The notes below the pieces were generated by a model that saw nothing but the letters and a program-made list of their open reading frames with translations, had not been told where the DNA came from and ran no database searches. Below are positions 2,885-56,618 of a stretch of DNA of 64,000 nt, piece by piece. The position numbers and the translations under genes were made by a program. Source of the DNA: Clostridia bacterium (GTDB lineage Bacteria; Bacillota; Clostridia; UMGS1883); contig JAFUOO010000008.1 of the NCBI GenBank assembly GCA_017472685.1, positions 6,154 through 70,153 of the forward strand, written 5' to 3'. How positions within the stretch are numbered: position 1 is the first letter of the stretch; the number at the start of each line of letters is the position of its first letter.

Positions 2885-2920
2885 AAGCTATGGAATTTAA
2901 AATTCCATAGCTTTTCTTTT
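2885..2920 (+). terminator. rho-independent terminator
   Basis: Palindrome AAGCTATGGAATTT/AAATTCCATAGCTT followed by a T-rich run. Confidence 0.7.
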
Positions 2921-2973
2921 TCTCCATCAAGTTGATGCCATTTGTTTTCTATGTTATTTTTTACTTAGTCTCA

Positions 2974-5154: not shown

Positions 5155-5210
5155 ATTTAATCACCACTTATTATTTTAATTGTTTTTGGAGATTTTATCA
5201 AGTGTAAGTA

Positions 5211-5299
5211 TTGACAAAAATAATAATTATGGTAAAATATCCATAGGGGTTAGTTTTGACTAACCCAAAAATTGACAAAACAAGTTAGTCAGAACTAAC
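5211..5299 (+). promoter_or_regulatory. promoter plus two palindromic GTTAGT-N4-ACTAAC sites
   Basis: TTGACA (5211-5216), 16-nt spacer, TGgTAAAAT (5230-5238). Palindromes are GGTTAGTTTTGACTAACC (5248-5265) and GTTAGTCAGAACTAAC (5284-5299). A second TTGACAAAA lies at 5272-5280. Confidence 0.5.
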
Positions 5300-5364
5300 A
5301 CAAAAAGAGGGCATACTAAAAGTGCATAACATTTTTGTTTGCGCAAGAAAGGCAGAGTGAGCTT

Positions 5365-5907
5365 ATGGAAAAACTGATTGCATATCACTGCGCTCCTGCT
5401 CTGGCGGGCATAAAGCCGTCGAATATAGTAACATGCTACAAAAACAAAATTGAAAATCTCAATGAAAAAATAGAAAAGCTGAACTGGGAGCTGAACAAAA
5501 AAGACATTTACGTTGAAATTTTGTGCGAATGTGAAAAGAAAGCTCTTGTAATGGTGTACAGAAAAAAGTTTTTGGAGAAAACCTTGTCGGATAAAGATGT
5601 AAGAAGCTTTCTTGTAGGAATGGGCTATCCCGAAGAAGGGAATACTTCAGAATATCTTGAAATACTCAAGAAGCATCTTAAGGGAGAAGAATTTTCTCAT
5701 GAGATTGGCGCATTCCTGGGCTATCCGATGCATGATATTTACGGCTTTATGTATCACAAGGACGAGGGGTGTCTCCTTTGCGGAGAATGGAAGGTTTACG
5801 AAAATGCCGATGCGGCAGAAAGGCTGTTTCACCGATTCGGCACATGTCGCAGAGCGCTTTGCGAAAAGCTGCAGGGCGGTAAAACCCTGGCGCAGGTATT
5901 TTGTTAA
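5365..5907 (+). CDS. DUF3793 family protein
   Basis: CAPALAGIKPSN ... HEIGAFLGYPMHDIYGF ... CLLCGEWKVY are typical of DUF3793. ATG 5365 is preferred over the track TTG at 5335. Confidence 0.7.
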   Translation: MEKLIAYHCAPALAGIKPSNIVTCYKNKIENLNEKIEKLNWELNKKDIYVEILCECEKKALVMVYRKKFLEKTLSDKDVRSFLVGMGYPEEGNTSEYLEILKKHLKGEEFSHEIGAFLGYPMHDIYGFMYHKDEGCLLCGEWKVYENADAAERLFHRFGTCRRALCEKLQGGKTLAQVFC

Positions 5908-6067
5908 AGAAGGGGATGGGCGCAGTGCCTGTCCTTTTTGCTTTAAACCGTAAAGACAAGCGGATTTATAGATGAAAACTAAATATTTCACAAAAATTTT
6001 TGAAAAAATTTGCCGTTTTTTTACTGTGGGATAATTGACTTTTCATAAAAAGTTGAATATAATTAAG

Positions 6068-6165
6068 AAAGAAAAGGGAGTAGCCGGCAATTTTGCACTC
6101 TCGGCGTCAGTACGAAGAAGGTTTTACCTGATTCCGCTCAGAGTTTAAATGGCGAGACTTTTGCA
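6068..6165 (+). promoter_or_regulatory. yybP-ykoY (manganese) riboswitch
   Basis: The 5' AAAAGGGAGUAGCC and 3' GGCGAGACUUUUGC match the conserved ends of the yybP-ykoY motif (AAAGGGGAGUAG ... GCAAGACCUUU). The 3' strand of P1 overlaps the 5' arm of the downstream terminator. Confidence 0.7.
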
Positions 6166-6200
6166 CAAAATATTTTTGCGCAAAAGGGCTCGCCTTTTTT
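6151..6200 (+). terminator. riboswitch expression-platform terminator
   Basis: GGCGAG-CTTTTGC ... GCAAAAG-CTCGCC followed by TTTTTT. It lies 20 nt upstream of the ATPase start. Confidence 0.7.
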
Positions 6201-6220
6201 GCGTTAAAGGAGGTTTTTCC

Positions 6221-45092: not shown

Positions 45093-46598
45093 ATGAAAAA
45101 AATGGCACAGAATAATAACAATAATAATCCCAATCAGCAGAAGACACGTGAAGAAAAGCTCCTTGAGCTCCGTGCGGCAGGCAGAGACCCCTATGAGGTT
45201 ACAAAATACGATGTAACTCATTCAATGACATATATTAAGGAACACTTTGAAGAGCTTGAAGGCAAAACCGTAAGAGCAGCAGGCAGACTTATGGCAAAGC
45301 GCCGTGCAGGCGGTTTGATGTTCGCAGACGTTCTTGACCGTGACGAAAAAATCCAGTTCTACTTAAAGAGGGACGAAATCGGCGAGGACGAATTCAACCG
45401 TTTCAAGTTAGAGATTGACGTTTGGGACGTTATCGGTGCAGAGGGTGTTGTTTTCAGAACAGCCGCAGGCGAAATTTCCATTAACGTAACAAGCTTCACT
45501 CTTCTTGCAAAGAACCTCTTTATCCCTGTAAAGGGCAACGAATACGTAAAGAATGAGGTGGCTGACCACGATATCCGCTACCGTCAGAGATATATGGATT
45601 TAATTGCAAATCCCTCCGTGCGTGAAACCTTCAAGAAGAGAAGTGCAATTATCCGCGAGATAAGAAATTATCTTGACTCACGTGATTTCTTAGAGGTTGA
45701 TACACCTGTATTGAACTCTATCAGCGGCGGTGCAACAGCGAGACCCTTCATCACACATCACAATGCATTAGACATTGATATGTATCTCCGTATTGCAACC
45801 GAGCTCAATCTTAAGAGACTTATCGTAGGCGGCCTTGAGCGTGTTTACGAAATGGGCAGACAGTTCCGTAACGAAGGTATGGACCTCACTCACAACCCCG
45901 AATTTACAAGTATTGAAATCTACCAGGCATATACAGACTACGAAGGCATGATGGAGCTTACAGAAGGTCTTATCACACATGTTTGTGAAAAGGTTAACGG
46001 CGAAAAGAAGTTCACCTTCAACGGCACAGAAATTGACCTTACAGGTCCCTGGCAGAGAATGACAATGAAGGAAGCTGTAAAGAAGTATTCCGGCATTGAC
46101 TTTGACACAATCACAACAGTAGAGGACGCTAAGGCGGCGCTTGCCTCTGTTGGCATTGAAGTGGAAGGCGAAAAGTCTATCGGCGAAATGATTGCTCTTG
46201 CATTTGAAGAAAAGGCAGAAGAGCACCTCACAGGACCCGTATTCATTACAGAATATCCTGTTGAAATTTCTCCTCTCGCAAAGAGATGCCACAGCAATAA
46301 GGCATTTACAGAACGTTTCGAAGTGTTCGTAATGGGTAAGGAATTAGGTAACGCATTCAGCGAGCTTAACGACCCCTACGACCAGAAGGAACGCTTTGAA
46401 GAACAGGTTAAGGCTTTAGAGGCAGGCGACGAGGAAGCAGGCATGATGGACGAAGACTACATCAACGCTCTTCGTTACGGTATGCCTCCCACAGGCGGCG
46501 TAGGTATCGGTATTGACCGCTTGGTAATGTTCTTAACTGACAATACCTCTATCCGCGACGTAATACTTTTCCCCACAATGAAGCCTTTAGACAAATAA
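45093..46598 (+). CDS. lysS: lysine--tRNA ligase (class II)
   Basis: OB-fold anticodon-binding domain and class II motifs ([17 protein letters not shown]). ATG 45102 is an alternative start with better SD spacing. Confidence 0.95.
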
Positions 46599-46635
46599 AT
46601 GGCGTAAAATCAAGGTTTTCAAAGATTGAAAGACA

Positions 46636-46659
46636 AAACTTACGACCAATTTACGACCA
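46636..46659 (+). repeat. attL-type direct repeat
   Basis: AACTTACGACCAATTTACGACCAA matches 55496-55519 at 23 of 24 positions. It is built from 2 TTACGACCA units. Confidence 0.75.
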
Positions 46660-46687
46660 AATAGGAAGAGCATATTCAAAAACATTT

Positions 46688-46728
46688 AAAACTGCAATGT
46701 TAGTTTGAAACTAATGTTGCAGTTTTTT
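46688..46728 (+). terminator. plus-strand terminator just inside the element
   Basis: AAAACTGCAATGTTAG ... CTAATGTTGCAGTTTTTT. The two non-Watson-Crick positions are G-U pairs only on the plus strand. Confidence 0.7.
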
Positions 46729-46752
46729 ATTTTGATAAATTATAAAAAACTA

Positions 46753-46801
46753 TTGACATTCATATTCTACTGTGGTAGAATATAGTAAACTACAAGTGTA
46801 G
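46753..46801 (+). promoter_or_regulatory. promoter overlapped by BlaI/MecI-type operator dyads
   Basis: TTGACA (46753-46758), 17-nt spacer, TAGAAT (46776-46781). Dyad 1 is ATTCTAC-TGTG-GTAGAAT (46764-46781). Dyad 2 is CTACAAGTGTAG (46790-46801), carrying the TACA/TGTA core. Confidence 0.65.
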
Positions 46802-46827
46802 AATATGTATTTTCTGGAGGTACTGAT

Positions 46828-47199
46828 ATGAAGAATATATCCATTGGGGATGCAGAATTAGAAATAATGAAAGTTATTTGGAAAGCAAAAGCACCTATAA
46901 CTTCTCTTGATATTGGAAAAGAAGTAGAAGATAAGGGTTGGAAAAAGACAACCATTGCAACCTTTCTTACAAGGCTTGTAGAAAAAGGTGCTTTGTCTGC
47001 AGACAAGCAAGGTAAAATGTATTACTACACACCTTTAATATCAGAAAAGGAATACAGAAAATCACAGACCAAAAATCTTATTAAGACTTTATATAATGGT
47101 TCTGTTAGAGATTTTGCAGTATCTTTCTTTGAAGAACAGAAATTATCAGACAAGGACATTCAGGAACTAAAGGCAATCTTTGAAGATAAGGGGGAATAA
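46828..47199 (+). CDS. BlaI/MecI/CopY family transcriptional repressor
   Basis: Winged-helix N-terminus (ELEIMKVIWKAKAPITSLDIGKEV...KKTTIATFLTRLVEKG) and a typical length of 123 aa. Confidence 0.85.
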   Translation: MKNISIGDAELEIMKVIWKAKAPITSLDIGKEVEDKGWKKTTIATFLTRLVEKGALSADKQGKMYYYTPLISEKEYRKSQTKNLIKTLYNGSVRDFAVSFFEEQKLSDKDIQELKAIFEDKGE

Positions 47200-47202
47200 T
47201 CT

Positions 47203-49362
47203 ATGGCACAAATATTTACAGCACTTCTTCTTACTTCTGGGATAGGCACAGCTCTTGCTCTGATACTAACTTTATTAAAACCTATAACAAGGAAAGTCTT
47301 TTCTGGTGGTTGGCATTATTATATGTGGTTGGTTGTACTTCTGGTAATGGTCTTGCCTATAAGATTAAACCTACCTGAAAAACCTGTAACTACACCACCT
47401 ACTTCTGAAACAGTCACAATTACAGATAATCAGGCCGAAAATACTGAAACACCTATAATTGATACACAACCAGAACAGATTATACAAGCACAGCCTACAC
47501 AACCTGAAAAAGTATCAACAATTCAGGCTATAAAGAACTTTTTAATTACTAATCTTCAATTATTCTCTTTAATCTGGTTAATGGGAGCAGTATTGCTGTT
47601 CCTGATAAAGATTGTAAGTTATCTGGTGTTCTTGATTAAAATACATAAACATTCAGAAATCATATCTTGTCCAGAAGTAAAGGCATATACAAACAGAAAA
47701 ATTAAAACAAGGGTAAGTGATACAATCTGCTCACCCCTTATGATAGGTATAATCAGACCTACATTATTACTACCTAAAACAGATATTACACCAGAACAAT
47801 TACATAATGTTTTGGCTCATGAAATGATACACTTAAAAAGAAATGATATTTTGTATAAGTGGTTTGTCAGCATAGTCAAATGTGTTCATTGGTTTAATCC
47901 TGCAATTTACTTTATCAGTAAGCAGATTAATATTGATTGTGAAATATCCTGTGATTTAGCAGTAGTAAAGGAAATGGATGAACAACAGGAAAAAGGATAT
48001 GTAGAAACCATATTATCACTTTTAACACATAACAACTCAAAGGCTATCCCCCTGACTACAGGAATGACAGGAAACAAGGAAACATTAAAAAGGAGGTTTA
48101 CTATGATTAAGAAAAGAAAGAACATAGGAAAAGTAACACAGATTTTATCAACAGTTTTAGCAGTTGTAATTTTAGTAACAACAGTATTTACAAGTGGTGT
48201 GTTAGCAACAGAAATATTAAAGAAAGACAATTCAGAAAATATATTTGATATAGAAGTTAGACATAATGGTTATCTTGTGGCATTAACAAATAAGCCATTT
48301 TTTGAAAATAATGTATTGTATTTACCATTAAGAGAATTACTTGAAAAAACAGGTCTTGTGGATAATGAAGATAGTTATATAAAATGGGATAATGGGAAAA
48401 TTACACTTTGTATAACAGAGGGGGATAATGCTCCAAACTATGATAGTACAGGAAATCAAATTGGAACTAAACCCATAATTATACAATACTATTATGGACT
48501 TGAAATAGGAAAAGCAGAGTATATATTAAATCCAGAAGGAACTTTGCCTGAACAAAGACATCATTTAAGTCTAAGTAAGGATATGACTAATGCTCCTATC
48601 CTGAAAGATAGTATTACATATATTCCCTATGAATATGTTGAATATATGGTAAATAAAGTTATGAGAAATCATGAGATAACTATATGGGATATTACTAATA
48701 TATCAACAAAAAACATAGATAACATAGATAATGCTGAAGATATGACCTATGAAGATATAAGAAGTTTACAAATATCTGTTGATAATGGACACTTCCCTTG
48801 GAGATTAGACCCTGAACAGGTTATAATGGCTTTCTTGTCTGGTAAAGGAATAAGTGTTAGCAATATAAGGTTGCCTGAAATTACAAATGATAAATTAAAA
48901 TATGTAGATGGTAATATTGAAATAGAGTTATTTAAGCCAATAGACAAGAGTGAAAAAGGTATCTGGATAGTAAAGACATTTCAGAAGAAAGGTAATGCTA
49001 TAATACAGGAAGTGCATTTTTATGAAAGAACTCCTGCACAGGCTTGGATAAACAAACAAGAGGATGGGTGGTACAAAGTTCCACAACACATAAGTGCTGT
49101 TTTACAATATGAAGGAGATAAACCACATTCAATATCAGCATATTTTACTCCAGCAGGAACAAATATGGAGAGTGAAAAAAAGTTAGTTGGTCAAAAAGTG
49201 CTTGTCACAACAGATACAAGTATATCCCAAACACCAGCAAGATTTCCTTCATTAGATATAGACTTTTCTAAAGAAGATACATTAGGTCATTTGTGGTTTG
49301 TCTTTAATTTTGAAGATGGTTCAAGTATAGTGTCAGAAATATACAATATGTATATTGAGTAA
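47203..49362 (+). CDS. BlaR1/M56-family membrane metalloprotease-type signal transducer with a non-canonical extracellular domain
   Basis: Zinc motif AHEMIHLKRND within the M56 region and several TM helices. A Cu-amine-oxidase-N-like stalk segment follows (VALTNKPFFENNVLYLPLRELLEKTGL). I could not recognise a penicillin-binding sensor domain by eye. Confidence 0.8.
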   Translation: MAQIFTALLLTSGIGTALALILTLLKPITRKVFSGGWHYYMWLVVLLVMVLPIRLNLPEKPVTTPPTSETVTITDNQAENTETPIIDTQPEQIIQAQPTQPEKVSTIQAIKNFLITNLQLFSLIWLMGAVLLFLIKIVSYLVFLIKIHKHSEIISCPEVKAYTNRKIKTRVSDTICSPLMIGIIRPTLLLPKTDITPEQLHNVLAHEMIHLKRNDILYKWFVSIVKCVHWFNPAIYFISKQINIDCEISCDLAVVKEMDEQQEKGYVETILSLLTHNNSKAIPLTTGMTGNKETLKRRFTMIKKRKNIGKVTQILSTVLAVVILVTTVFTSGVLATEILKKDNSENIFDIEVRHNGYLVALTNKPFFENNVLYLPLRELLEKTGLVDNEDSYIKWDNGKITLCITEGDNAPNYDSTGNQIGTKPIIIQYYYGLEIGKAEYILNPEGTLPEQRHHLSLSKDMTNAPILKDSITYIPYEYVEYMVNKVMRNHEITIWDITNISTKNIDNIDNAEDMTYEDIRSLQISVDNGHFPWRLDPEQVIMAFLSGKGISVSNIRLPEITNDKLKYVDGNIEIELFKPIDKSEKGIWIVKTFQKKGNAIIQEVHFYERTPAQAWINKQEDGWYKVPQHISAVLQYEGDKPHSISAYFTPAGTNMESEKKLVGQKVLVTTDTSISQTPARFPSLDIDFSKEDTLGHLWFVFNFEDGSSIVSEIYNMYIE

Positions 49363-49380
49363 AATCAAAGGTGGCTTTAT

Positions 49381-49692
49381 ATGAGAAAAATTATATACTT
49401 TATACCTGCATTACCCTTTACTATTTTATTCATTTATTTTGCCATTGGAACTTCAATAGAAGTAACACCTATTGCCTGGATAATGAATATCCTACTTATA
49501 TTATCAGGAATGTTAATGTGTAAAAGTAAGTGGTGGGGTTGTTGCTTTGGAGTGATTTCAGGTGCTATATTGATATATATGGGGCTACAAGAAACAGGTC
49601 AGATTTTCAAGGAATATATTTTAGGTGTTCCACTTGTTATATTTTATATTATATGTGGTTTTGTGGTTGCAAAGCATAACAAGAAAAAGTAG
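49381..49692 (+). CDS. small membrane protein (103 aa, about 3 TM helices)
   Basis: AAAGGTGG RBS. It is hydrophobic throughout and lies 18 nt after the blaR1-like stop. Confidence 0.6.
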   Translation: MRKIIYFIPALPFTILFIYFAIGTSIEVTPIAWIMNILLILSGMLMCKSKWWGCCFGVISGAILIYMGLQETGQIFKEYILGVPLVIFYIICGFVVAKHNKKK

Positions 49693-49707
49693 GACTTTGT
49701 ATAGATA

Positions 49708-49733
49708 GGGTGTGTTCCGCACGGAACACACCC
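49708..49733 (+). terminator. terminator of the cargo operon
   Basis: GGGTGTGTTCCG ca CGGAACACACCC followed by TTATAATT. Confidence 0.7.
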
Positions 49734-49760
49734 TTATAATTCTTGTTACACAAATGTAAT

Positions 49761-49789
49761 TTGACATAAGACAATATATATGATAATAT
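49761..49789 (+). promoter_or_regulatory. near-consensus sigma-A promoter with no ORF behind it
   Basis: TTGACA (49761-49766), 17-nt spacer, TGaTAATAT (49781-49789). Confidence 0.6.
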
Positions 49790-49795
49790 GTAGTT

Positions 49796-50370
49796 GATGA
49801 AGTTTACATAAATTTCCTCTTGTAGTGGGATTAAGTGCTGCAATTGGAGTTTGTGAGAATATTCTTTCATCCATCGCTTATAAACTACCCAAGCTCATAG
49901 CGGGCATGATGCACCCTTGGGAGCAATAGGCTTATAAGGATGATTAGTGTCGATTTTTACGGAGTGTATATATCCGGTATGTTTACTTTGAAGCCCGATA
50001 GTTTTAATGGTGCCCAGTAATGGAAAGTAGCCGGGGCAGACGCAGGCGAAATTCATCATTCTGTACTATCCCACAGAATAGGGTAAAGTAAGTCTGTCTT
50101 GCCATCGGACACGCTATGCGTGATCGGGACCGATGTGTAAACGAAACGATTTCTCGATAACCCGTGAACGGGGGTACTATGCCCTTAAGAGAACTAAATG
50201 TATTTTATGGAGATGGAAAACCTACTACCCTTTTGGGTCTGAATGAAAAACCGATTTGGTTTTTAAGGAGATGAACACGCAAAGGGAGTTTTGTGCCCTT
50301 TTTGCAGATGTGGAGAAAAATTCATATATTGGAGATATGAAAACACGGTCAATATTTGACGGTGTTTTTT
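49796..50370 (+). ncRNA. candidate structured non-coding transcript of about 575 nt (family unassigned)
   Basis: No plus-strand ORF of 60 aa or more lies between 49692 and 50553. Many local and long-range helices are visible (listed in the finding). An intrinsic terminator AACACGGTCAA tat TTGACGGTGTT + TTTT lies at 50342-50370. The segment is more G+C-rich than the rest of the element (by eye). Confidence 0.45.
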
Positions 50371-50552
50371 CGTACTTATTTAAGGAAAACAGCGGTTTTG
50401 CCTTTGGGGTAATTTTTTAAAGGGGGGTGATGCTTATGTTATATGGAAAACAACACAAAGTCTTTTATAATATTTCAACTTATAACATAAACATAGCAAA
50501 TTTAACAACCACCTCCAAATGCAAAATCACATAGAAAACATAGGTCTATATA

Positions 50553-51017
50553 ATGGGTAGAATTTATCCTGAAGTTGAAAAACTTCTCGATGAATTGAAA
50601 TCACGGCAAGTTTTTGATGCCGATTTCAATCGTCATTTACCCATACGCAAAACTTTTCATGGAGTAATAAATCAATTATTGGAGATGAAACATTGCAATT
50701 CTGTAATGTTTTGTGAAAAGACAGATTTAAACAAAACAATATTCAGCGATTTAAAGAAAAAAGACTACAAACCTATTAAAAGAATAGTAGTTACTATCTG
50801 TATCGGCTTAAAGCTCGAATATTCAATATCAGAAGAATTATTAAGATTAGCAGGTTATGAATTAGTATTGACAAGGGAAATCGACTATGCTTATTATCTG
50901 TTTATGACAGAGTACCGACATCCCGATATGTCAATAGAAGATTATAATAAATTACTTGAGCATTGGGGTTTTGATGAAAAAGACTTTTTAGGCTCATTGA
51001 CGAGGAAAACAGAATAA
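50553..51017 (+). CDS. hypothetical protein, possibly an XRE-like HTH regulator of the element
   Basis: 154 aa. An HTH-like segment (MFCEKTDLNKTIFSDLKKKDYKPIKRIVVTICIGLKL) is present. The SD is weak. A terminator follows at 51025-51063. Confidence 0.5.
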   Translation: MGRIYPEVEKLLDELKSRQVFDADFNRHLPIRKTFHGVINQLLEMKHCNSVMFCEKTDLNKTIFSDLKKKDYKPIKRIVVTICIGLKLEYSISEELLRLAGYELVLTREIDYAYYLFMTEYRHPDMSIEDYNKLLEHWGFDEKDFLGSLTRKTE

Positions 51018-51255
51018 AAATTATTATGCCGTGTGTAGATTTTACGCACGGCATATTTTTTTTGCAAAAACAGATAATTTGGCAAATTACCAAAAGTAAC
51101 GGTTTTATGCGGTTTCTCATACTGGATTAAATTGAAACCCCTTGAAAAATGGGGATTTGTTGGTAATTTCGCAAATGTTTGTAAGACAAAAAAATTGTGT
51201 TATCATATACTCGTAATCCGGATTTACAATATTTTACGAGGAGGAATTTTTTAAT

Positions 51256-51573
51256 ATGAAAATTCAAGATTTAATAATTGATCCCAAGAGTTTAGGAAGT
51301 AAGCTATGGCTTGTTGATGTTGCACCTGTGTATGAGTATAAGGACAACAGGAGAACAGAAAACATCACCGGCTATCGCTACACGGTTGCAATGCCCGAAA
51401 AAGGTCTTGATAAAATCAACATCAGGATTGACGGAAAGCAGCTTGTAGAAAAACCGAATGGCTATGCGGAAGTTACATTCGCAGGCCTTGAACTGTCATT
51501 GTATATGATGAATAATCAGCCACAGGTCAAAGCAACTGCAACAGGTATAACATTAGTTAATAACAAGGCTTAA
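51256..51573 (+). CDS. small protein, possibly DUF961/HelP-like (helicase processivity factor of ICEBs1/Tn916-type elements)
   Basis: GAGGAGG RBS, 105 aa, beta-rich. Its position directly upstream of the Rep and FtsK-like genes mirrors Tn916 orf22/23 and ICEBs1 helP. The sequence assignment is tentative. Confidence 0.4.
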   Translation: MKIQDLIIDPKSLGSKLWLVDVAPVYEYKDNRRTENITGYRYTVAMPEKGLDKINIRIDGKQLVEKPNGYAEVTFAGLELSLYMMNNQPQVKATATGITLVNNKA

Positions 51574-51626
51574 AGGCTATCGGCACGGCGGAGATTTTTC
51601 CTCAAAAAAATATTTGCCGTGCCGTC

Positions 51627-51676
51627 CAAGCCATAAGGGTTAGTATTACCCTTATGGCTTGAATGTAGCATGTAGC
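51627..51676 (+). promoter_or_regulatory. candidate rolling-circle origin / oriT: stem-loop with TAGTATTAC apex plus tandem iterons
   Basis: The 14-bp perfect stem pairs CAAGCCATAAGGGT (51627-51640) with ACCCTTATGGCTTG (51648-51661). TAGTATTAC sits at 51641-51649. ATGTAGC occurs twice in tandem at 51663-51676. The Rep ATG lies at 51695. Confidence 0.6.
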
Positions 51677-51694
51677 AGAAAGGTGGTCGATTAT

Positions 51695-52636
51695 ATGTCA
51701 AATTCACAATCACGCAAATGGACTTTGGTAATAAATAATCCGCTTGAATGTGAGTTTACACACGAGCATATATGCGAAATATTGATGAAGTTTTTTCCTG
51801 ACTATTTCTGTATGGCTGACGAGATTGCAAAAACGGGAACTTTTCATACTCATATTTTCATATATTCCCATTCCCCGATACGATTTTCAACGCTGAAAAA
51901 TCGATTCCCAATTGCTCATATTGAAAAAGCTATCGGAAGCGCAAAACAAAATCGTGATTATATATTAAAATCGGGCAAATGGGAAAATAATGAAAAATCT
52001 GAAACAAGTATTGAGGGCAGTTTTTACGAGTACGGCACTTTGCCAAAGGAACGGGATGAGAACAATCCCAAAATGAGCAAACTGATTGAGAATATCCGTG
52101 ACGGAAAGCAGACAACCGAGATTATAGATGATTCCCCCGAATTTGCTTTTCGCATCCGTGATATTGATGCACTCCGTCAGGTGCTTAATTCCGAAAAGTA
52201 TTTAAGTGAAAACAGAGATTTATATGTAACATATATTTTCGGTGCAAGCGGAACGGGAAAAACCAGGAGTATATATCAAAAGCACGATGCGAAAGAAATT
52301 TGCAGAATAACAAATTACCGAGCAGGCAAAGGAATAAATTTTGACGGATATTCGGGTCAGGATGTTTTGGTGTTTGAGGAATTTAATTCACAGATCCCCA
52401 TTGAAGAAATGCTGAACTATCTTGACATTTATCCTCTAAATCTTCCGGCAAGGTATAACGACAGAACAGCGTGCTTTACAAAGGTATATATCACTTCTAA
52501 CATTCCTCTGTCAGAACAATACAAGGATGTGCAGATTTATCATCCTGAAACTTGGAACGCATTTTTAAGAAGAATACATAAGGTTTTGGAATACCACAAG
52601 GATGGCGGCATTACGGAAAGGAGTGCAAAGGTATGA
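51695..52636 (+). CDS. HUH endonuclease-SF3 helicase Rep (CRESS-DNA-virus-like replication initiator / putative IME relaxase)
   Basis: Motif I WTLVINN, motif II HTHIFIY and motif III YILK (Tyr codon at 51959-51961). Walker A GASGTGKT, Walker B VLVFEEF, motif C ITSN and FLRRI follow, all in canonical order. ATG 51695 follows AAAGGTGG. Confidence 0.8.
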   Translation: MSNSQSRKWTLVINNPLECEFTHEHICEILMKFFPDYFCMADEIAKTGTFHTHIFIYSHSPIRFSTLKNRFPIAHIEKAIGSAKQNRDYILKSGKWENNEKSETSIEGSFYEYGTLPKERDENNPKMSKLIENIRDGKQTTEIIDDSPEFAFRIRDIDALRQVLNSEKYLSENRDLYVTYIFGASGTGKTRSIYQKHDAKEICRITNYRAGKGINFDGYSGQDVLVFEEFNSQIPIEEMLNYLDIYPLNLPARYNDRTACFTKVYITSNIPLSEQYKDVQIYHPETWNAFLRRIHKVLEYHKDGGITERSAKV

Positions 52637-53952
52637 ACAGACAAGATAAATATATTTTAGAAAGCAAAACAAGATTGAAATATCAGTTTTTAAGATTAAA
52701 GACAGGTATTTATGAAGTAACTCATAAAAAATTATACTCCATAATTGCAGTTACATACATACTTGTTGCTTTGCTTATATGGGTTATATCAAGAGTAAAT
52801 GCAAATACAGAAACAGCAGATATATTTTCATTATTCAATATAGTTGTATTTCAGCTTTTATATCCGCTTTATGCGGTTGCCGGATTTATCGTTATGCTGA
52901 TTATGATAGGAACTCCTAAAGGTGCAAAATCCATAAATGAAAATCTGTGGAGAATCGGTCTGACAAATCACGCAGCAGAATCTCCCCTGTTACTTCGCAA
53001 GTATAGACAAGACAACGAATTTGATATTACAATTATGGAATTTGAGCCTAACGGCATACCTCTTTCAGAATGGCAGGACAAACAGGAACGGATTGAAACT
53101 GCATTAAATGTGCATATCATAAAATTTGAGCAAGGCACAAGCAAAAGACGGATTTTGTTATACACCGTATCAGGTGATGAAGGATTACCCAAAACTGTTT
53201 ACTGGAAGGAAAAATATTTAAGTGATGAAGATTTTACACTTATTTTTGGTTACAGTATGACGGGACAGGTCAATATAAACCTTGCTAAAATTCCTCATAT
53301 ATTGCTTGGTGGTTCGACAGGTTCAGGTAAAAGTGTACTGCTTAAATTACTCATTATGCAATGTATTAAAAAGGAAGCGGATGTATTTATTGCAGACTTT
53401 AAGGGCGGTGTTGATTTTCTTCCCGAATGGCACGAAATGTCATATATCATAACAGAAGAAAATACCCTGCTTGAAGTTTTAACAGAGCTTGTAAATGAAT
53501 TAGAGAACAGAAAACAGGTGCTCAGAAAATACGGTTGTGCAAACATTGGCGAATACAACAAGGTGTATGCAAACAAGATGAAAAGAATTGTCTTTGCCTG
53601 TGATGAGGTTGCAGAGGTTTTGGATAAAACAGGTCTTTCAAAGGATGCAAAAGAGCTTGTAACACAAATTGAGGGTAAACTCTCTATAATTGCAAGACAA
53701 GGCAGGGCATTTGGAATACATCTGATTTTAGCAACACAAAGACCGGATGCAAATATCTTAACAGGGCAAATACGAAACAACATTGATTTCAGAGTATGCG
53801 GAAGAGCCGACAATGTATTATCTCAAATCATACTTGATAATACAGAGGCAGCAGACAAAATTCCAAAGGAATCACAAGGCTTGTTTATCACGCATGATGG
53901 GGTTGTATTTCAAGGTTATTTATTTGATGAAAAGGCTGTTTTCGTGGAATAA
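52633..53952 (+). CDS. FtsK/SpoIIIE-family DNA translocase / TcpA-like coupling protein
   Basis: Two N-terminal TM helices, Walker A GGSTGSGKS, Walker B IVFACDE and the ATQRP motif. Confidence 0.85.
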   Translation: MNRQDKYILESKTRLKYQFLRLKTGIYEVTHKKLYSIIAVTYILVALLIWVISRVNANTETADIFSLFNIVVFQLLYPLYAVAGFIVMLIMIGTPKGAKSINENLWRIGLTNHAAESPLLLRKYRQDNEFDITIMEFEPNGIPLSEWQDKQERIETALNVHIIKFEQGTSKRRILLYTVSGDEGLPKTVYWKEKYLSDEDFTLIFGYSMTGQVNINLAKIPHILLGGSTGSGKSVLLKLLIMQCIKKEADVFIADFKGGVDFLPEWHEMSYIITEENTLLEVLTELVNELENRKQVLRKYGCANIGEYNKVYANKMKRIVFACDEVAEVLDKTGLSKDAKELVTQIEGKLSIIARQGRAFGIHLILATQRPDANILTGQIRNNIDFRVCGRADNVLSQIILDNTEAADKIPKESQGLFITHDGVVFQGYLFDEKAVFVE

Positions 53953-53966
53953 AGGATGTGGCGAAT

Positions 53967-54170
53967 ATGAAAAATACAAAATATGTTCCGCCGTGGGAAA
54001 AGTCAAATCTTACACTTGAAGAAGCTGCAGCCTATTTTGGAATCGGAATAAACAAATTGCGAGAAATTACAAACGATAAAAATTGTAAATTTGTTTTATG
54101 GGTTGGCAGTAAAAGACTTATAAAGCGGAAACTGTTCGATGAGTATATCGAAAAACAATACTCAATCTAA
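53967..54170 (+). CDS. excisionase-type small HTH DNA-binding protein
   Basis: 67 aa with LTLEEAAAYFGIGINKLREIT, lying immediately upstream of the integrase. ATG 53967 has better SD spacing than the track GTG at 53958. Confidence 0.7.
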   Translation: MKNTKYVPPWEKSNLTLEEAAAYFGIGINKLREITNDKNCKFVLWVGSKRLIKRKLFDEYIEKQYSI

Positions 54171-54244
54171 TTGACAATGAGAGCATATTTAAGTATAATA
54201 ATACTTGGATATGCTCTTCTTTCTTGTAACGAAAGGAGAACATT

Positions 54245-55498
54245 ATGGCAGTTGAAAGAAGAAAAGACACAAAAAATCGTGTTTTAAAAGAAGGTGAATA
54301 CCAGAGAGCAAACGGAACATTTGAATACAAATGGCGAGACAAACGAGGTAAGCGACATTCTATATACGCAAAAACACTTGAAGAACTGCGAGAAAAAGAG
54401 ATTGATGTACTTCGGGATGTGTTAGATGGTATAAGAGCTGAAAAAAGCGATTTGACAATCAACGATTTATTTCATTTGTGGGTGCAGCTTAAACGAGGAT
54501 TGAAAGAGAACACTTTTTCAAACTATAAATATATGTACACACAATTTGTTGAGGGCGATTTTGGTGAAACGCTTATTTCAGAGTTAAAGCGGTCAGATGT
54601 AAGGGCATTTTACAATTACCTTGCAGACGAACAACATTTGAAAGCTAATACCATTGACAACATACATACTGTACTTCATCAGGTGTTGGAATTAGGTGTC
54701 GAGGATGATTATTTGAGATATAATCCATCAGACAACGCATTAAAAGAATTACGGAAAGCACATAACAATGGTTCACCAAAAAGACGGGCATTAACAATTC
54801 CCGAACAAAACTTGTTTGAAGAATTTTTGAGTGAACAAGGGCAATATCATAAATGGTATCCTATTTTTGTGGTTCTTTTATGGACAGGAATGAGAGTGGG
54901 AGAAATAACGGGATTGCGTTGGTGTGATATTGATTTGGAGAATGAAACAATAAGTGTAAATCATACTTTGGTATATTTCAGCAAAGGCAAAGCACAAGGA
55001 TGTTCATTTGCAATCAATACACCCAAAACAGAGGCAGGCAGACGGACAATCCCAATGCTGCCGAAAGTCAAAGAAGCCTTTTTGATGGAAAAACAATTCC
55101 AAGAAGAAATTGACTTGAAATGTACTGTAAGCGTTGACGGATATACGGATTTTATTTTCATCAATCGTTTTGGTGGTGTGCAACATCAAGGAACACTTAA
55201 CAAGGCATTACGGAGAATTATCCGTGACTGTAATTATGAAGTGTTAGACAGGGGACATATCGAAAATACTGTTACACTACCCCGTTTCAGTAATCACTCG
55301 CTCAGACATACATTCACAACACGAATGTGTGAAGCCGGTGTGAATATCAAAGCAATGCAAGATATTTTAGGTCATGCGGATGCAGAAACAACAATGGATA
55401 TTTACGCCGAAGCAACAAAGGATTTGAAGCGTTCCGAAATGATAAACTTTGACGAATACTTTAACAATCAAAAAGTCATTCAATCTGGTACAAACTAA
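54245..55498 (+). CDS. tyrosine-type site-specific recombinase (integrase)
   Basis: SAM-like N-domain and a catalytic domain with TGMRVGE (Arg), HSLRHTF and LGHADAETTMDIYAE (His...Tyr). The stop codon abuts the right direct repeat. Confidence 0.9.
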   Translation: MAVERRKDTKNRVLKEGEYQRANGTFEYKWRDKRGKRHSIYAKTLEELREKEIDVLRDVLDGIRAEKSDLTINDLFHLWVQLKRGLKENTFSNYKYMYTQFVEGDFGETLISELKRSDVRAFYNYLADEQHLKANTIDNIHTVLHQVLELGVEDDYLRYNPSDNALKELRKAHNNGSPKRRALTIPEQNLFEEFLSEQGQYHKWYPIFVVLLWTGMRVGEITGLRWCDIDLENETISVNHTLVYFSKGKAQGCSFAINTPKTEAGRRTIPMLPKVKEAFLMEKQFQEEIDLKCTVSVDGYTDFIFINRFGGVQHQGTLNKALRRIIRDCNYEVLDRGHIENTVTLPRFSNHSLRHTFTTRMCEAGVNIKAMQDILGHADAETTMDIYAEATKDLKRSEMINFDEYFNNQKVIQSGTN

Positions 55499-55530
55499 CT
55501 TACGACCACTTTACGACCAACTTACGACCA
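55496..55530 (+). repeat. attR-type direct repeat (3 TTACGACCA units)
   Basis: AACTTACGACCACTTTACGACCAA followed by CTTACGACCAT. The first 24 nt match attL with 1 mismatch. Confidence 0.75.
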
Positions 55531-55672
55531 TTTATAAAGAATTGCACAGTAATATAAATTTACGAAAGGAAAAATTACTTGACAAGTGGCGATTTGTAGG
55601 GATATAATGAATTGTAACTTCTTCAATAGGAGTTCCCCACAATGCGTCCTGTTGACAACAAGTAAGAGAATT

Positions 55673-56257
55673 ATGAAAACATGGCATAAAATTGCAATTA
55701 TAACGGTAATTATTGTTGGAATTCTCATATCGGTAAAAAGCTGTGTTGATAAACGGGATGCCGATATCACACTTGCATATATCGGCAGCGAATTTATTGA
55801 CTGTGAGCTTTTTAATGAAAATGTAAAGGCCTTGCACAGCGTGTGCTCCGATATTAATGCTGACGGCGAGCTTGTGGTTGATATTATGGAAATATCCTTC
55901 AACGACAGCCTCAGCCAGGCGGATAAGCAGAATTCTGACAGTAAGCTGGCAAACGCTGTGGGCGCAGGGGCTGCAAGGGTTTATCTTATTGAAGAAAAAT
56001 ACCTGATGAACAATGCATCAAGCGGTGTTTTTGCCGATTTGTCCCATCTTGGCGACGGCTTTAAAAATGCCTCGGGAGAGGTTTGCGGCATAAGTGTTAA
56101 GGGCAATACAAAGGTTGAAAAATTGGGCATTGATGCCTCGGGCGATATTTATCTGGCTGTGAGAATTGTCAGCGAGATAGATGCTCTGACTGATAAAAAT
56201 ATAGAAAAAAAGCATGCTTTGGCAATGGATATTGCTGAATATATTTTAAACGATTAA
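55673..56257 (+). CDS. hypothetical membrane-anchored or lipoprotein-like protein
   Basis: ATG 55673 gives MKTWHKIAIITVIIVGILISVKSC... The track start (GTG 55586) lies inside the promoter TTGACA-N18-TATAAT at 55579-55608. Confidence 0.55.
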   Translation: MKTWHKIAIITVIIVGILISVKSCVDKRDADITLAYIGSEFIDCELFNENVKALHSVCSDINADGELVVDIMEISFNDSLSQADKQNSDSKLANAVGAGAARVYLIEEKYLMNNASSGVFADLSHLGDGFKNASGEVCGISVKGNTKVEKLGIDASGDIYLAVRIVSEIDALTDKNIEKKHALAMDIAEYILND

Positions 56258-56279
56258 ATAAAGAAAAGAGGTATGTAAA

Positions 56280-56618
56280 ATGACAGAAGCAGCTACAAAC
56301 GCAGGCGGTACAATGGGCGGTCTCAGCGGTACACTTATTTATCTTGTACTGATGATAGCATTTTTCTATTTCCTTCTTATCCGTCCCCAGAAGAAGAGAG
56401 AAAAGCAGACGAGAATGATGCTTAACGACATGCGCCCCGGTGATGAAGTTATCACAATCGGCGGTGTTATGGGTAACATTGTTAACATCAAGGATGACCG
56501 TGTTGTTATCGAAACAGGCGCAAACAGAACAAAGCTCACTTTCGAAAAGAGTGCAATCAAGACAGTGCTCACAGTTCATGAGGACGAAGACGAGTACGAA
56601 ATCGAAGAGGAAGAATAA
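56280..56618 (+). CDS. yajC: preprotein translocase subunit YajC
   Basis: One TM helix, then LLIRPQKKREKQ...GDEVITIGGVMGNIVNIKDD, typical of YajC. A terminator follows at 56623-56652. Confidence 0.85.
   Translation: MTEAATNAGGTMGGLSGTLIYLVLMIAFFYFLLIRPQKKREKQTRMMLNDMRPGDEVITIGGVMGNIVNIKDDRVVIETGANRTKLTFEKSAIKTVLTVHEDEDEYEIEEEE

Follow-up and report, generated by a model that had tools for sequence, protein, structure and literature searches.

The chromosome of a gut Clostridia bacterium carries, in front of a gene for a virus-type replication initiator (Rep), a hairpin with a nonanucleotide at its tip. This raises the question of what the hairpin is for: whether Rep cuts it to replicate the surrounding DNA, to transfer that DNA to another cell, or for both purposes, or whether the site acts as RNA instead. 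We followed this question through a window of 64,000 nucleotides (contig JAFUOO010000008.1, positions 6,154 to 70,153), which is the whole stretch of DNA analyzed here and to which all coordinates refer. A sequence-only reading had pointed out an origin and a Rep in this window and had interpreted them as a CRESS-type replication module within a bacterial integrative element. Its observation of the origin and the Rep is confirmed and its interpretation is supported; within the latter, the position of the nick and the choice between ori and oriT are what we infer.

The initiator is a pCRESS2-type Rep

The rep gene (51695..52636, +) starts with an ATG at 51695, preceded by an AGGTGG ribosome-binding site, and its stop codon ends at 52636. 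It encodes a protein of 313 residues, which had been described from its motifs as an HUH endonuclease fused to an SF3 helicase. All of these motifs are present in the open reading frame, and Pfam bears out both domains above their cut-offs, Viral_Rep with 38.2 bits (cut-off 26; residues 7-92) and RNA_helicase with 25.4 bits (cut-off 21.5; residues 180-266). Likewise, the protein aligns over its full length with the Rep structure of porcine circovirus 2 (PDB 7lar, E = 5e-16). The key residues are invariant in 28 Rep homologs, both in the endonuclease (W9, N14, H51, H53, Y89 and K92) and further along the chain (G183/G186/G188/K189/T190, E228/E229, N269 and R292/R293).

Motif II of Rep (HTH) is of the HUH and not the HUQ type, its Walker B motif (VLVFEEF) contains the Glu-Glu pair, motif C (ITSN) has the Asn, and motif III (YILK) is free of YLxH. 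This is the signature of the pCRESS2 group as given by Kazlauskas 2019 (PMC6668415; Supplementary Note 1 and section 8). Full-length identities to six pCRESS2-labelled sequences from Dataset 2 range from 48% to 66% (E = 1e-104 to 1e-155), with the highest value for WP_044942941.1 (66%) and the next highest at 62%. By its motifs and by pairwise identity, Rep is a pCRESS2 member. The sequence-only reading had further seen in the element a possible living link between bacterial replicons and CRESS modules; such a link is already in the literature, in the form of pCRESS2 (Kazlauskas et al. 2019; PMC6668415).

A nonanucleotide hairpin with iterons precedes rep

The origin hairpin (51627..51661, +) has a stem of 14 nt, in which CAAGCCATAAGGGT (51627-51640) is 100% complementary to ACCCTTATGGCTTG (51648-51661), and a 7-nt loop, TAGTATT. 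At its apex lies the nonamer TAGTATTAC (51641-51649), and, given the size of the loop, nonamer positions A8 and C9 are base-paired, unlike in the larger circovirus loops. By analogy with circovirus Rep, which cuts AGTATT/AC, we place the predicted nick between 51647 and 51648. A single base (A, 51662) separates the stem from two tandem iterons, ATGTAGC ATGTAGC (51663..51676, +), which are putative Rep-binding sites, and the ATG of rep follows 34 nt past the last stem base. Just upstream, a GC-rich inverted repeat, CGGCACGGC/GCCGTGCCG (51581..51624, +), can be extended to 19-nt arms with 84% complementarity; it co-folds with the origin hairpin, and equivalent hairpins are present in related loci. 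Stem, loop, nonamer, tandem repeats and upstream inverted repeat were thus all found where the sequence-only reading had located them, the repeats with one base between them and the stem.

That reading had also cautioned that the nonamer is a weak argument by itself, and rightly so: the window contains two matches against 0.45 expected, which is not significant. The second TAGTATTAC copy, at 48609, was considered as a further origin, but we take it to be a chance occurrence because it lies inside the blaR1-like gene described below and outside any hairpin. The structure around the first copy, by contrast, is far beyond chance, as DNA folding of 51575-51694 gave -32.1 kcal/mol (z = -8.2 relative to shuffles). 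No single-strand origin was identified for the element.

The site is conserved in related loci

A hairpin presenting AGTATTAC was found at the matching place in 77 of 79 related loci, whose Reps are 60-98% identical to the one studied here. There, AGTATTAC forms the apex of a perfect hairpin of 9-15 bp, ~35-70 nt upstream of Rep, and the iterons are kept as well. Two relatives have other loops (GAGTACTAC in L039 and TAAGCATTG in L079), so the nick sequence is not universal. More distant loci from IMG/VR retain the site at Rep identities of 62%, 55%, 49% and 44%.

The stem changes between related loci in a compensatory and almost purely Watson-Crick manner. In 46 distinct hairpins, 92% of the stem pairs are Watson-Crick pairs, a value somewhat inflated by the choice of hairpins with a single register, compared with 66% in column shuffles and 19-37% when the arms are slid against each other; double changes occur at 9 of the 14 pairs, and pairing drops to random past pair 13. 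These statistics were computed in Python from gapless sequences anchored at the nonamer, since a MAFFT alignment had misplaced gaps in the 3' arm. The iterons vary too (ATGTAGC, GTAGCA, TGTATCG, TGTGTCA, TGTCGCA, TGTGACA and GTACCA), but they keep their position and both copies change jointly, as expected of real iterons. Around the site, the module of orf105, hairpin, rep and ftsK is invariant between related loci, whereas the integrase module is swapped.

The site matches an Rfam family but looks like DNA

Positions 51629..51677 (+) match the Rfam family RF03070 (ssNA-helicase) over the full model (1-49) with 69.2 bits (gathering score 41.5; E = 5.3e-11), and 8 of 12 related loci tested also pass the gathering score. 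The ssNA-helicase motif was described by Weinberg et al. (2017; PMC5737381). Its family consensus, uucCaUAAGGGuUAGUAUUACCCUUAuGgaacuuaUGUAGCAUGUAGCA, corresponds to the hairpin described here together with both iterons. Rfam files the family as a candidate RNA gene (type sRNA), although the authors of the motif reportedly left room for a function as single-stranded DNA. None of the papers that could be searched links RF03070 to CRESS origins, and the term 'ssNA-helicase' appeared in the searched literature in one unrelated benchmarking paper only.

Given this classification, the site might be a structured RNA within the orf105-rep transcript, that is, a cis-regulatory element or a small RNA that controls the translation of rep. 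Such a reading accords with the RF03070 match and its label, with the position of the hairpin inside a probable operon transcript, as the interval up to the ribosome-binding site is too short for a promoter, and with the iterons adjoining that ribosome-binding site. We nevertheless judge it very unlikely. G-T (G-U) pairs make up 0.8% of the stem pairs in the 46 hairpins, against 5.3% in shuffles, and such scarcity is to be expected of a site in which each of the two strands has to form the stem. The loop matches exactly the octamer that the homologous circovirus Reps cleave, and concerted change of tandem repeats is a usual feature of double-stranded DNA bound by proteins. Moreover, in the IMG/VR contig L086, which is probably circular and inovirus-like, hairpin and iterons lie ~290 nt downstream of rep, and the site is therefore not tied to a 5' UTR. 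The proximity to the ribosome-binding site is no obstacle, since Rep autoregulation via the iterons would fit a DNA site too. Judging by its pattern of sequence change, the site looks like double-stranded DNA rather than RNA.

Rep and its site are part of a putative mobilizable element in lysS

The view that Rep resides in an integrated bacterial element holds as well: it belongs to an element of 9064 bp (~46581 to 55644) that is bounded by direct repeats and sits in the 3' end of lysS. This integration target encodes a class II Lys-tRNA synthetase (45093..46598, +; Pfam tRNA-synt_2, E = 3e-96). It has the attL core TTCCCCACAATG (46569..46580) inside its 3' end, and the attR core (55633..55644) is the right copy of this exact 12-bp direct repeat. 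Following the attL core, lysS ends with the tail MKPLDK*, its last codons coming from the element, while the displaced tail, MRPVDNK*, follows the attR core. A second element, L015, likewise resides in lysS with a 13-bp repeat; the ends are set by direct repeats in two independent elements. Inside the ends, there are two copies of an arm-type repeat, (A/T)(C/T)TTACGACCA, on the left (46637..46660), which have 11-12-nt words in common with three copies of CTTACGACCA on the right (55494..55533), found in a direct-repeat search. The GC content is 30-37% within the element and 42-46% outside.

The predicted attP and attB sequences read …GGAGTTCCCCACAATGAAGCC… and …ACTTTTCCCCACAATGCGTCC…, respectively. 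One metagenome scan with a degenerate core pattern detected neither an attP nor an attB junction for this species; its sole return was an unrelated, uninterrupted lysS. A different repeat, at 50949 and 55572, was rejected as a pair of att sites because orf154 and the DNA leftwards from 49740 are conserved in related elements; the true repeat is the one in lysS.

The left part of the element starts with genes for a blaI-like repressor (46828..47199, +; Pfam Penicillinase_R, E = 2.6e-34) and a blaR1-like M56 membrane peptidase or sensor (47203..49362, +; Pfam Peptidase_M56, E = 8.6e-55), which may represent cargo or serve regulation; some related elements have divergent BlaR1-like genes. They are followed by an ORF for a hydrophobic protein of 103 residues without a Pfam match (49381..49692, +) and by an ORF-poor stretch of ~860 bp (49693..50552), which is conserved in related elements (91% identity in L001 and 73-75% in five other loci) and gave no match in an Rfam scan. 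Next comes orf154 (50553..51017, +), a weakly conserved ORF of 154 codons found in about half of the related elements (26-48% identity in tblastn; phrog_4031, function not assigned), with a terminator behind it (51025-51055).

The right part, beyond rep, contains the FtsK-like pump and the tyrosine integrase that the sequence-only reading had named. The pump is an FtsK/SpoIIIE-family ATPase (52633..53952, +; Pfam FtsK_SpoIIIE, E = 1.2e-17) with two N-terminal membrane segments (residues 32-57 and 64-97) and a Walker A motif at residue 227. Its greatest similarity is to TcpA, which acts as coupling protein in pCW3-family plasmids, with 36% identity to TcpA of pCPF4969. A Tn916-type excisionase (53958..54170, +; Pfam Tn916-Xis, PF09035, E = 2.1e-22) and a Tn916-type tyrosine integrase (54245..55498, +; Pfam Phage_integrase, E = 4.8e-25; Integrase_DNA, PF02920, E = 4.8e-17) complete the element. 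Neither the ORF list nor Pfam revealed a VirB4- or pore-type gene between attL and attR. With no conjugation module in its 9 kb, the element does not class as a Tn916-family ICE despite its integrase and excisionase. Its inventory, comprising an integration/excision module, a relaxase candidate, a coupling protein and direct repeats but no pore genes, is that of an IME. A match to capsid or virion proteins was likewise absent from the scanned ORFs (Pfam for all listed ORFs, PHROGs for orf154 and orf105 only), those with matches being blaI, blaR1, rep, ftsK, xis and int. In this respect, the element does not class as a CRESS-DNA virus.

Immediately ahead of the origin, orf105 (51256..51573, +) encodes a protein of 105 residues. 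It is a conserved partner gene that recurs in all related loci for which the available DNA extends far enough. It occupies the place expected for the small SSB (2k5d/DUF961-like) gene of pCRESS family (i), and we considered it as an SSB, HelP or DUF961 protein. However, Pfam, NCBIfam and PHROGs returned no match, a search of its profile against PDB sequences gave a spurious dextranase only, and its AlphaFold model, based on 26 homologs, is poor (pLDDT 55), with nothing below E = 2.6 in a Foldseek search of the PDB. We thus obtained no similarity to SSBs in sequence or fold, and neither profile nor fold searches yielded a link to HelP/DUF961. A comparison with the RstB-like protein of bajarodino virus 56 ended at an hhalign probability of 0.4%. 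In two relatives, orf105 contains stop codons.

These stop codons, like the empty att scan, would suit an element that has decayed into an inactive relic, with the motif kept merely by recent common descent. This strikes us as scarcely credible, because the conservation of the site extends over Rep identities from 98% down to 44% and includes compensatory changes in the stem, the catalytic residues are invariant, and all genes of this copy are intact.

A probable combined origin of replication and transfer

It is probable that the hairpin with TAGTATTAC and the two ATGTAGC repeats are the site that the adjacent Rep recognizes and cuts, and hence the double-strand origin of a pCRESS2-type integrative element. 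Most likely, the site is the cognate origin of Rep after excision, and it probably also is an oriT. In such a scheme, the Tn916-type Xis and Int would cut the 9.06-kb element out of lysS, whose 3' end it occupies, and yield a supercoiled circle; the att sites point to this reaction. Rep would bind the iterons beside the stem, and the hairpin would be extruded. If Rep acts as its circovirus counterpart does, Tyr89 of the HUH domain would cut TAGTATT/AC at 51647/51648 and stay on the 5' end. The free 3'-OH would prime rolling-circle synthesis while the SF3 helicase of Rep unwinds the DNA, and the excised element would thereby not be lost. Subsequently, the Rep-ssDNA complex would probably be passed to the product of the neighboring gene, the TcpA-like FtsK ATPase anchored in the membrane, and be exported via the conjugation pore of a co-resident conjugative element; a foreign pore would be needed because the element itself lacks genes for one. 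The site would then combine the roles of ori and oriT, as happens in ICEBs1 and Tn916.

Two other divisions of labor have to be weighed. Rep could be the pure conjugative relaxase of an IME, following the Coluzzi/Guédon model, in which case it would nick the hairpin solely to begin transfer via the pore of a helper element, the site would be an oriT only and the excised form would not replicate by itself. Rep is indeed always paired with a TcpA-like coupling protein, in this element also with an integrase and an excisionase, and Rel_PF02407 proteins have been proposed as relaxases (PMC5357655, PMC5704250). Still, we find an exclusive role in transfer unlikely: the Rep-origin cassette also serves the replication of free replicons lacking an integrase (plasmid p4M and inovirus genomes), Rep has an intact SF3 helicase domain, which would be superfluous for a pure relaxase, and the related non-canonical relaxases NicK of ICEBs1 and Orf20 of Tn916 serve both replication and transfer (PMC5704250).

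Alternatively, the FtsK-like ATPase could pump the double-stranded circle straight into an adjacent cell in the manner of TraB in actinomycete AICEs, leaving replication as the only task of Rep. The combination of Int, Xis, Rep and an FtsK-like ATPase is the AICE gene set, and the ATPase has a weak match to the plasmid TraB family of NCBIfam (E = 2.3e-6). This match amounts to 26.4 bits, however, compared with a cut-off of 800, and so the protein does not class as TraB; its closest relatives are the TcpA coupling proteins of clostridial plasmids that depend on a T4SS. The hosts, moreover, are unicellular Clostridia, for which we know of no TraB-type transfer. We therefore regard transfer of double-stranded DNA as highly improbable and retain the reading of the site as a nick site of Rep for replication and, probably, for single-stranded transfer.

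Implications

Each component has been catalogued before: the protein family as pCRESS2, the element type as IMEs with Viral_Rep and TcpA (Coluzzi et al. 2017; PMC5357655), and the DNA motif as RF03070. The three catalogues stem from virology, conjugation biology and RNA bioinformatics, and none of them states that pCRESS plasmids, IMEs with a Viral_Rep 'relaxase' and the RF03070 'RNA' are pieces of one system. Nor did we find a published reading of RF03070 explicitly as a CRESS-type DNA nick site. Read jointly, the Rfam 'RNA' becomes a DNA origin and nick site, and the pCRESS/IME field gains its missing cis-acting site, and thereby a place to look for ori and oriT.

A nonanucleotide origin of the circovirus type, with its iterons on the corresponding side, thus occurs in bacterial elements, a plasmid and filamentous phages, which supports the notion that the origin was inherited along with Rep. 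One may go further and propose that RF03070, instead of being an RNA, is the DNA at which pCRESS2-type Reps nick and initiate replication, and that the whole cassette, made up of an (N)AGTATTAC hairpin, TGT-NN-CA iterons 3' of the hairpin and an HUH+SF3 Rep, came down in one piece to replicons of four types, namely integrated mobilizable elements, free plasmids (p4M), filamentous phages (bajarodino viruses, L086) and the ancestors of circoviruses and nanoviruses. We give this proposal an even chance. If true, the origin of eukaryotic CRESS viruses, and not just their Rep, would be of bacterial plasmid descent, a TcpA-type coupling protein would let the bacterial site act as a conjugative oriT as well, and a genetically tractable bacterial model for CRESS-type initiation would be at hand. 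The practical value is moderate, consisting in a nicking test that is simple to perform in vitro and in a potential bacterial model; no new kind of system is revealed.

Comparison with known systems

The closest counterparts are the integrated pCRESS2 plasmids (Kazlauskas, Varsani, Koonin, Krupovic 2019; PMC6668415). They share the HUH motif II, the Glu-Glu Walker B motif and the Asn in motif C, as well as integration with a tyrosine integrase, direct repeats and an FtsK-like ATPase, and structural genes are absent from pCRESS elements in general (PMC6668415). The present copy differs in its location in lysS, a target absent from the table of Kazlauskas 2019, and in its blaI/blaR1-like cargo. 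Neither this study with its supplements (PMC6668415), nor the Tarasova-Khayat review, nor the Replitron paper refers to a stem-loop or a nonanucleotide in connection with pCRESS.

Streptococcal IMEs with a Rel_PF02407 or PHA00330 'relaxase' (PMC5357655, PMC5704250) are similar in their integrase, Viral_Rep-domain protein, TcpA-like FtsK ATPase and flanking direct repeats and in their lack of pore genes, but reside in Streptococcus instead of Clostridia. For this class, neither Coluzzi 2017 (PMC5357655) nor Guédon 2017 (PMC5704250) defines an oriT or nick site. The ICEBs1/Tn916 module resembles the element in that Int and Xis are of the Tn916 type, a conserved small gene accompanies an FtsK-like coupling protein, and a rolling-circle-type initiator adjoins its nick site (predicted in our case); the dual ori/oriT logic, proposed here, is shared as well. 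In contrast to that module, the initiator is of the Viral_Rep+SF3 and not the Rep_trans type, rep precedes ftsK, and there is no pore module.

Circovirus and nanovirus origins likewise display (T/A)AGTATTAC at the apex of a stem-loop, oriented like rep, with tandem repeats 3' of the stem and ahead of rep, and with a homologous HUH+SF3 Rep. A NANTATTAC nonamer at a stem-loop apex, in rep orientation and with adjoining iterons, which is one of the defining features of a CRESS-type origin, is also what we find here. The present replicon, however, is a 9-kb integrated bacterial element without a capsid gene, and it differs from circoviruses in its 7-nt loop with a paired nonamer AC and in having HUH instead of HUQ as motif II.

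Lastly, the same arrangement is found in free replicons. Plasmid p4M of Bifidobacterium pseudocatenulatum, the founder of pCRESS3, has an FtsK gene followed by the hairpin GTGGGCGG-CATAGTGTTAC-CCGCCCAC, which presents TAGTGTTAC, and then GTACCA GTACCA, a ribosome-binding site and RepA; yet p4M exists as a free plasmid of 4.5 kb, its Rep shares only 28% identity and position 5 of its nonamer is G. The Inoviridae 'bajarodino viruses' (GenBank PQ006121-PQ006184), a name that appears in no paper of the searched literature, and contig L086 differ in being filamentous-phage genomes with a Zot-type morphogenesis ATPase and without a TcpA-like gene. Yet their Reps are 43-46% identical to the one studied here and are accompanied by a TAGTATTAC hairpin followed by TGTCGCA or TGTGACA iterons, and the origin cassette is thus present in an inovirus genome, that of bajarodino virus 56.

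The probable origin region and its Rep

A perfect 14-bp stem, in which CAAGCCATAAGGGT (51627-51640) pairs with ACCCTTATGGCTTG (51648-51661) around a 7-nt loop, precedes rep and presents the nonamer TAGTATTAC (51641-51649) at its apex. The tandem heptamers ATGTAGC ATGTAGC (51663-51676) lie 1 base beyond the stem and are followed by an AGGTGG ribosome-binding site and the ATG of the 313-aa ORF (51695-52636); a second inverted repeat occupies 51581-51624. Apart from the ribosome-binding site, these features had been proposed by a model in a sequence-only reading, as parts of a circovirus-type origin in an integrative element, and each is present in the sequence. Folded as DNA, the region 51575-51694 has an energy of -32.1 kcal/mol, which lies 8.2 standard deviations below that of shuffled sequences. 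As that reading cautioned, the nonamer may occur by chance; with two copies in the window against 0.45 expected, it proves nothing on its own. The second TAGTATTAC (48609-48617, same strand) lies within a blaR1-like ORF, has no hairpin and is most likely there by chance.

The Rep protein matches the Pfam profiles Viral_Rep (aa 7-92) and SF3 RNA_helicase (aa 180-266), with scores that exceed the curated cut-off in both cases, as the sequence-only reading had anticipated. A profile of 28 homologs aligns over its full length with the structure of the porcine circovirus 2 Rep (7lar, E = 5e-16) and also matches several isolated circovirus endonuclease and ATPase domains. The motif residues assigned beforehand, namely motif I, HUH, Tyr89/Lys92, Walker A, the Glu-Glu Walker B, the motif C Asn and the Arg finger, are all invariant among homologs that are 66-90% identical. 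With over 3,000 database proteins at E <= 0.001, chiefly from gut Clostridia metagenomes, the family is large. The window Rep shares 66% identity with the labelled pCRESS2 member WP_044942941.1 and 55% with the Rep of element RumCAG-E1 (Kazlauskas et al., 2019), and its HUH, Glu-Glu Walker B and motif C Asn are signatures of pCRESS2.

Conservation and covariation of the hairpin

From species-representative genomes we fetched 80 loci with Reps 60-98% identical to that of the window; their hosts include Clostridia, Oscillospiraceae, Acutalibacteraceae, Flavonifractor, Pseudoflavonifractor and others. Upstream DNA was available for 79, and 77 of these have a perfect 9-15-bp hairpin with AGTATTAC at its apex, at the same distance from rep; the expectation that homologous elements keep hairpin and nonamer is thus borne out. 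Eight IMG/VR loci widen this conservation to Rep identities of 62, 55, 49 and 44%. The two loop exceptions, L039 (GAGTACTAC; 6919-6968) and L079 (TAAGCATTG; ~6930-6990), still have a hairpin and also have changed iterons (TGTATCG x2 and ATCGCA x3, respectively); they may represent naturally occurring variants in the specificity of the Rep-origin pair.

In every locus, a tandem repeat follows the stem immediately at a fixed position, and its sequence varies in both copies together: ATGTAGC x2 in the window and its close relatives, GTAGCA x2 with a 6-nt period in many Oscillospiraceae, TGTGTCA x2 in locus L066 and TGTCGCA x2 in locus L078, with most repeats fitting the pattern TGT-NN-CA. Since repeats that bind proteins behave in this way, changing in concert while keeping their place, we regard them as genuine iterons and putative Rep-binding sites. 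One or two extra GC-rich hairpins (51581-51624 in the window, equivalent positions in related loci) are always present downstream of the orf105 stop codon and ahead of the origin hairpin; they have no T-run and are therefore not classic terminators.

The outer stem shows paired changes between loci, for example CAAGCC/GGCTTG, TGCCCC/GGGGCA, CTACACC/GGTGTAG and TTTCCGTAGAGG/CCTCTACGGAAA. For a quantitative account, 46 distinct hairpins were anchored on the nonamer in one register without gaps, and 14 pairs were scored. The Watson-Crick share is 92.2%, compared to 65.8% (maximum 69.1%) in 500 column shuffles, although a hairpin had to match at 10 or more of the inner 12 pairs to be retained, which biases the observed pairing upwards and leaves the ordering of the controls unaffected. 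Sliding the 3' arm by 1-3 positions reduces pairing to 19-37%; changes on both sides are seen at nine of the 14 pairs, and pairing drops to random past pair 13.

An Rfam scan of 46000-56500 gave a single strong match, RF03070 "ssNA-helicase RNA", at 51629-51677 (69.2 bits, gathering score 41.5). "ssNA" in this name reportedly stands for "single-stranded nucleic acid", its authors being undecided between RNA and DNA. The consensus, uucCaUAAGGGuUAGUAUUACCCUUAuGgaacuuaUGUAGCAUGUAGCA, comprises the hairpin, the nonamer and both iterons, and the gathering score is also reached in 8 of the 12 related loci that were scanned. The family originates from Weinberg et al. (2017; PMC5737381), where the main text states that the method picks up ssDNA motifs too; in the literature searched, the name "ssNA-helicase" occurs only in unrelated work. 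An RNA element at this site appears very unlikely to us, given that G-T pairs make up just 0.8% of cells, compared to 5.3% in shuffles: their near-absence is expected where both DNA strands must pair and is atypical for an RNA hairpin. Moreover, the site is not confined to the rep 5' UTR, as it lies downstream of rep in the IMG/VR contig L086.

The integrated element

The GC content falls from 42-46% to 30-37% between ~46.6 and 55.6 kb, and a 12-bp direct repeat, TTCCCCACAATG, is found within the 3' end of lysS (46569-46580) and at 55633-55644. Beyond the left repeat the reading frame ends in MKPLDK and a stop; beyond the right repeat there is a displaced tail, MRPVDNK and a stop. The 9,064-bp element is therefore inserted into the lysS 3' end and supplies a replacement tail, the usual pattern of tyrosine-integrase elements. 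Near each end there are arm-type direct repeats, CTTACGACCA (46637-46660 and 55494-55533), and the right set overlaps the integrase stop codon. In locus L015, whose Rep is 79% identical, the element sits in lysS as well; the direct repeat there measures 13 bp, the lysS core is the same and the arm repeats are different (TTTACCCA-like).

From left to right, the element encodes a blaI-like repressor and a blaR1-like M56 sensor-peptidase (46828-49362), a small hydrophobic ORF, an ORF-poor conserved stretch of ~860 bp (49693-50552), orf154, orf105, the origin, rep, an FtsK/SpoIIIE ATPase gene, and Tn916-type Xis and Int. The blaI/blaR1-like pair is the only recognizable cargo; it might control the element or respond to a signal at the envelope. 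Several related elements (L001, L006, L011, L034, L052) have divergent BlaR1-like genes. The stretch 49693-50552 has no ORF above 54 aa and no Rfam match. Its identity is 91% to L001 and 73-75% to five further loci, and it is a candidate for a single-strand origin or for a regulatory region. In loci L069 (6524-6832) and L078 (6518-6829), the orf105 homolog has an in-frame stop codon, either because these copies may be decaying or because of possible errors in sequencing.

The block orf105-hairpin-rep-ftsK is constant throughout the 80 loci, while the recombinase module is swapped. The ATPase has two N-terminal membrane segments, and its best plasmid relatives (36% identity over 90% of its length) are encoded by the gene adjoining tcpM in the pCW3-family plasmids of Clostridium perfringens, which is the coupling protein TcpA. 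Transfer of double-stranded DNA in a TraB-like manner is, in our estimate, equally as improbable as an RNA element.

The same cassette in a plasmid and in filamentous phages

In plasmid p4M (NC_003527.1), the founder of pCRESS3, the Rep is only 28% identical to that of the window, and the origin layout is the same: at 2730-2790, directly downstream of an FtsK gene, a GTGGGCGG-CATAGTGTTAC-CCGCCCAC hairpin with the nonamer TAGTGTTAC is followed by GTACCA GTACCA, a ribosome-binding site and RepA. Six GenBank records of Inoviridae "bajarodino viruses" (virus 56 and five more) encode Reps 43-46% identical to the window's. Virus 56 (PQ006124.1; Rep 45% identical) has a CTGCCGGG-tcTAGTATTA-CCCGGCAG hairpin presenting TAGTATTAC at ~1830-1990, ~130 nt upstream of rep, with TGTCGCA repeats after it.

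L086 (IMGVR_UViG_3300007109_000095; 7,076 bp) has a 28-nt terminal repeat and is probably circular. Its pCRESS2-like Rep is 44% identical to the window's, and ~290 nt downstream of rep, at ~1339-1460, comes a TAGTATTAC hairpin accompanied by five or more TGTGACA iterons. The contig also encodes a Zot-type morphogenesis ATPase (4896-5816) and a tyrosine integrase (5809-6894), and at its start there is a stretch similar to the 3' end of a tRNA. It has the appearance of an integrative filamentous phage with a replication module of the CRESS type. An Rfam match to the Hammerhead_II ribozyme at 2901-2967 (+) is barely over the gathering score (37.9 versus 37 bits).

Thus, the site moves with Rep into true rolling-circle replicons and is not bound to the rep 5' UTR, which favors a DNA origin over an RNA regulator or a pure oriT. 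A role as oriT only, although less improbable than an RNA element, is accordingly unlikely.

Proposed mechanism

The Rep profile matches, the conserved site, and the parts and ends of the element support the sequence-only interpretation as a whole. What is observed directly is the set of parts, how they are conserved and covary, and where the element ends; the hairpin site is probably the cognate nick site and origin, likely in dual use. By analogy with circovirus biochemistry, also described in Pfam, Rep would bind the iterons and the hairpin would be extruded; Tyr89 would then cut TAGTATT/AC between 51647 and 51648 and stay on the 5' end, and the 3'-OH would prime rolling-circle synthesis, in which the helicase would be the SF3 domain. 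The nicked complex may also be offered to the pore of a helper element, so that the site would double as oriT, a role suggested by the ICEBs1/Tn916 precedent and the invariant TcpA-like neighbor. That the element is an inactive relic is the least probable reading.

Comparison with known systems

Kazlauskas et al. (2019; PMC6668415) defined nine groups of bacterial "pCRESS" Reps and showed most of them to belong to integrated elements that carry tyrosine integrases; FtsK-like ATPases and small SSB-like genes are common to groups 1-3, 5 and 8. They argued that CRESS-DNA viruses descend from pCRESS-type plasmids. Earlier, streptococcal IMEs with a putative PF02407 or PHA00330 relaxase were found to encode TcpA, and these proteins were suggested to serve transfer and maintenance alike (Coluzzi et al., 2017, PMC5357655; Guédon et al., 2017, PMC5704250). 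The idea of a living link between bacterial replicons and CRESS-type modules, raised in the sequence-only reading, is therefore already published.

The words "nonanucleotide" and "stem-loop" are absent from Kazlauskas et al. (2019) and its 13 supplementary files; a structural review of pCRESS Reps makes no mention of such an origin, nor is it described in the papers found to use both "pCRESS" and "nonanucleotide". The novelty is limited, as the element otherwise belongs to known kinds, and the sole unpublished point is apparently the reading of RF03070 as the origin, CRESS-type and with co-varying iterons, that serves pCRESS2 Reps and is common to p4M and filamentous phages.
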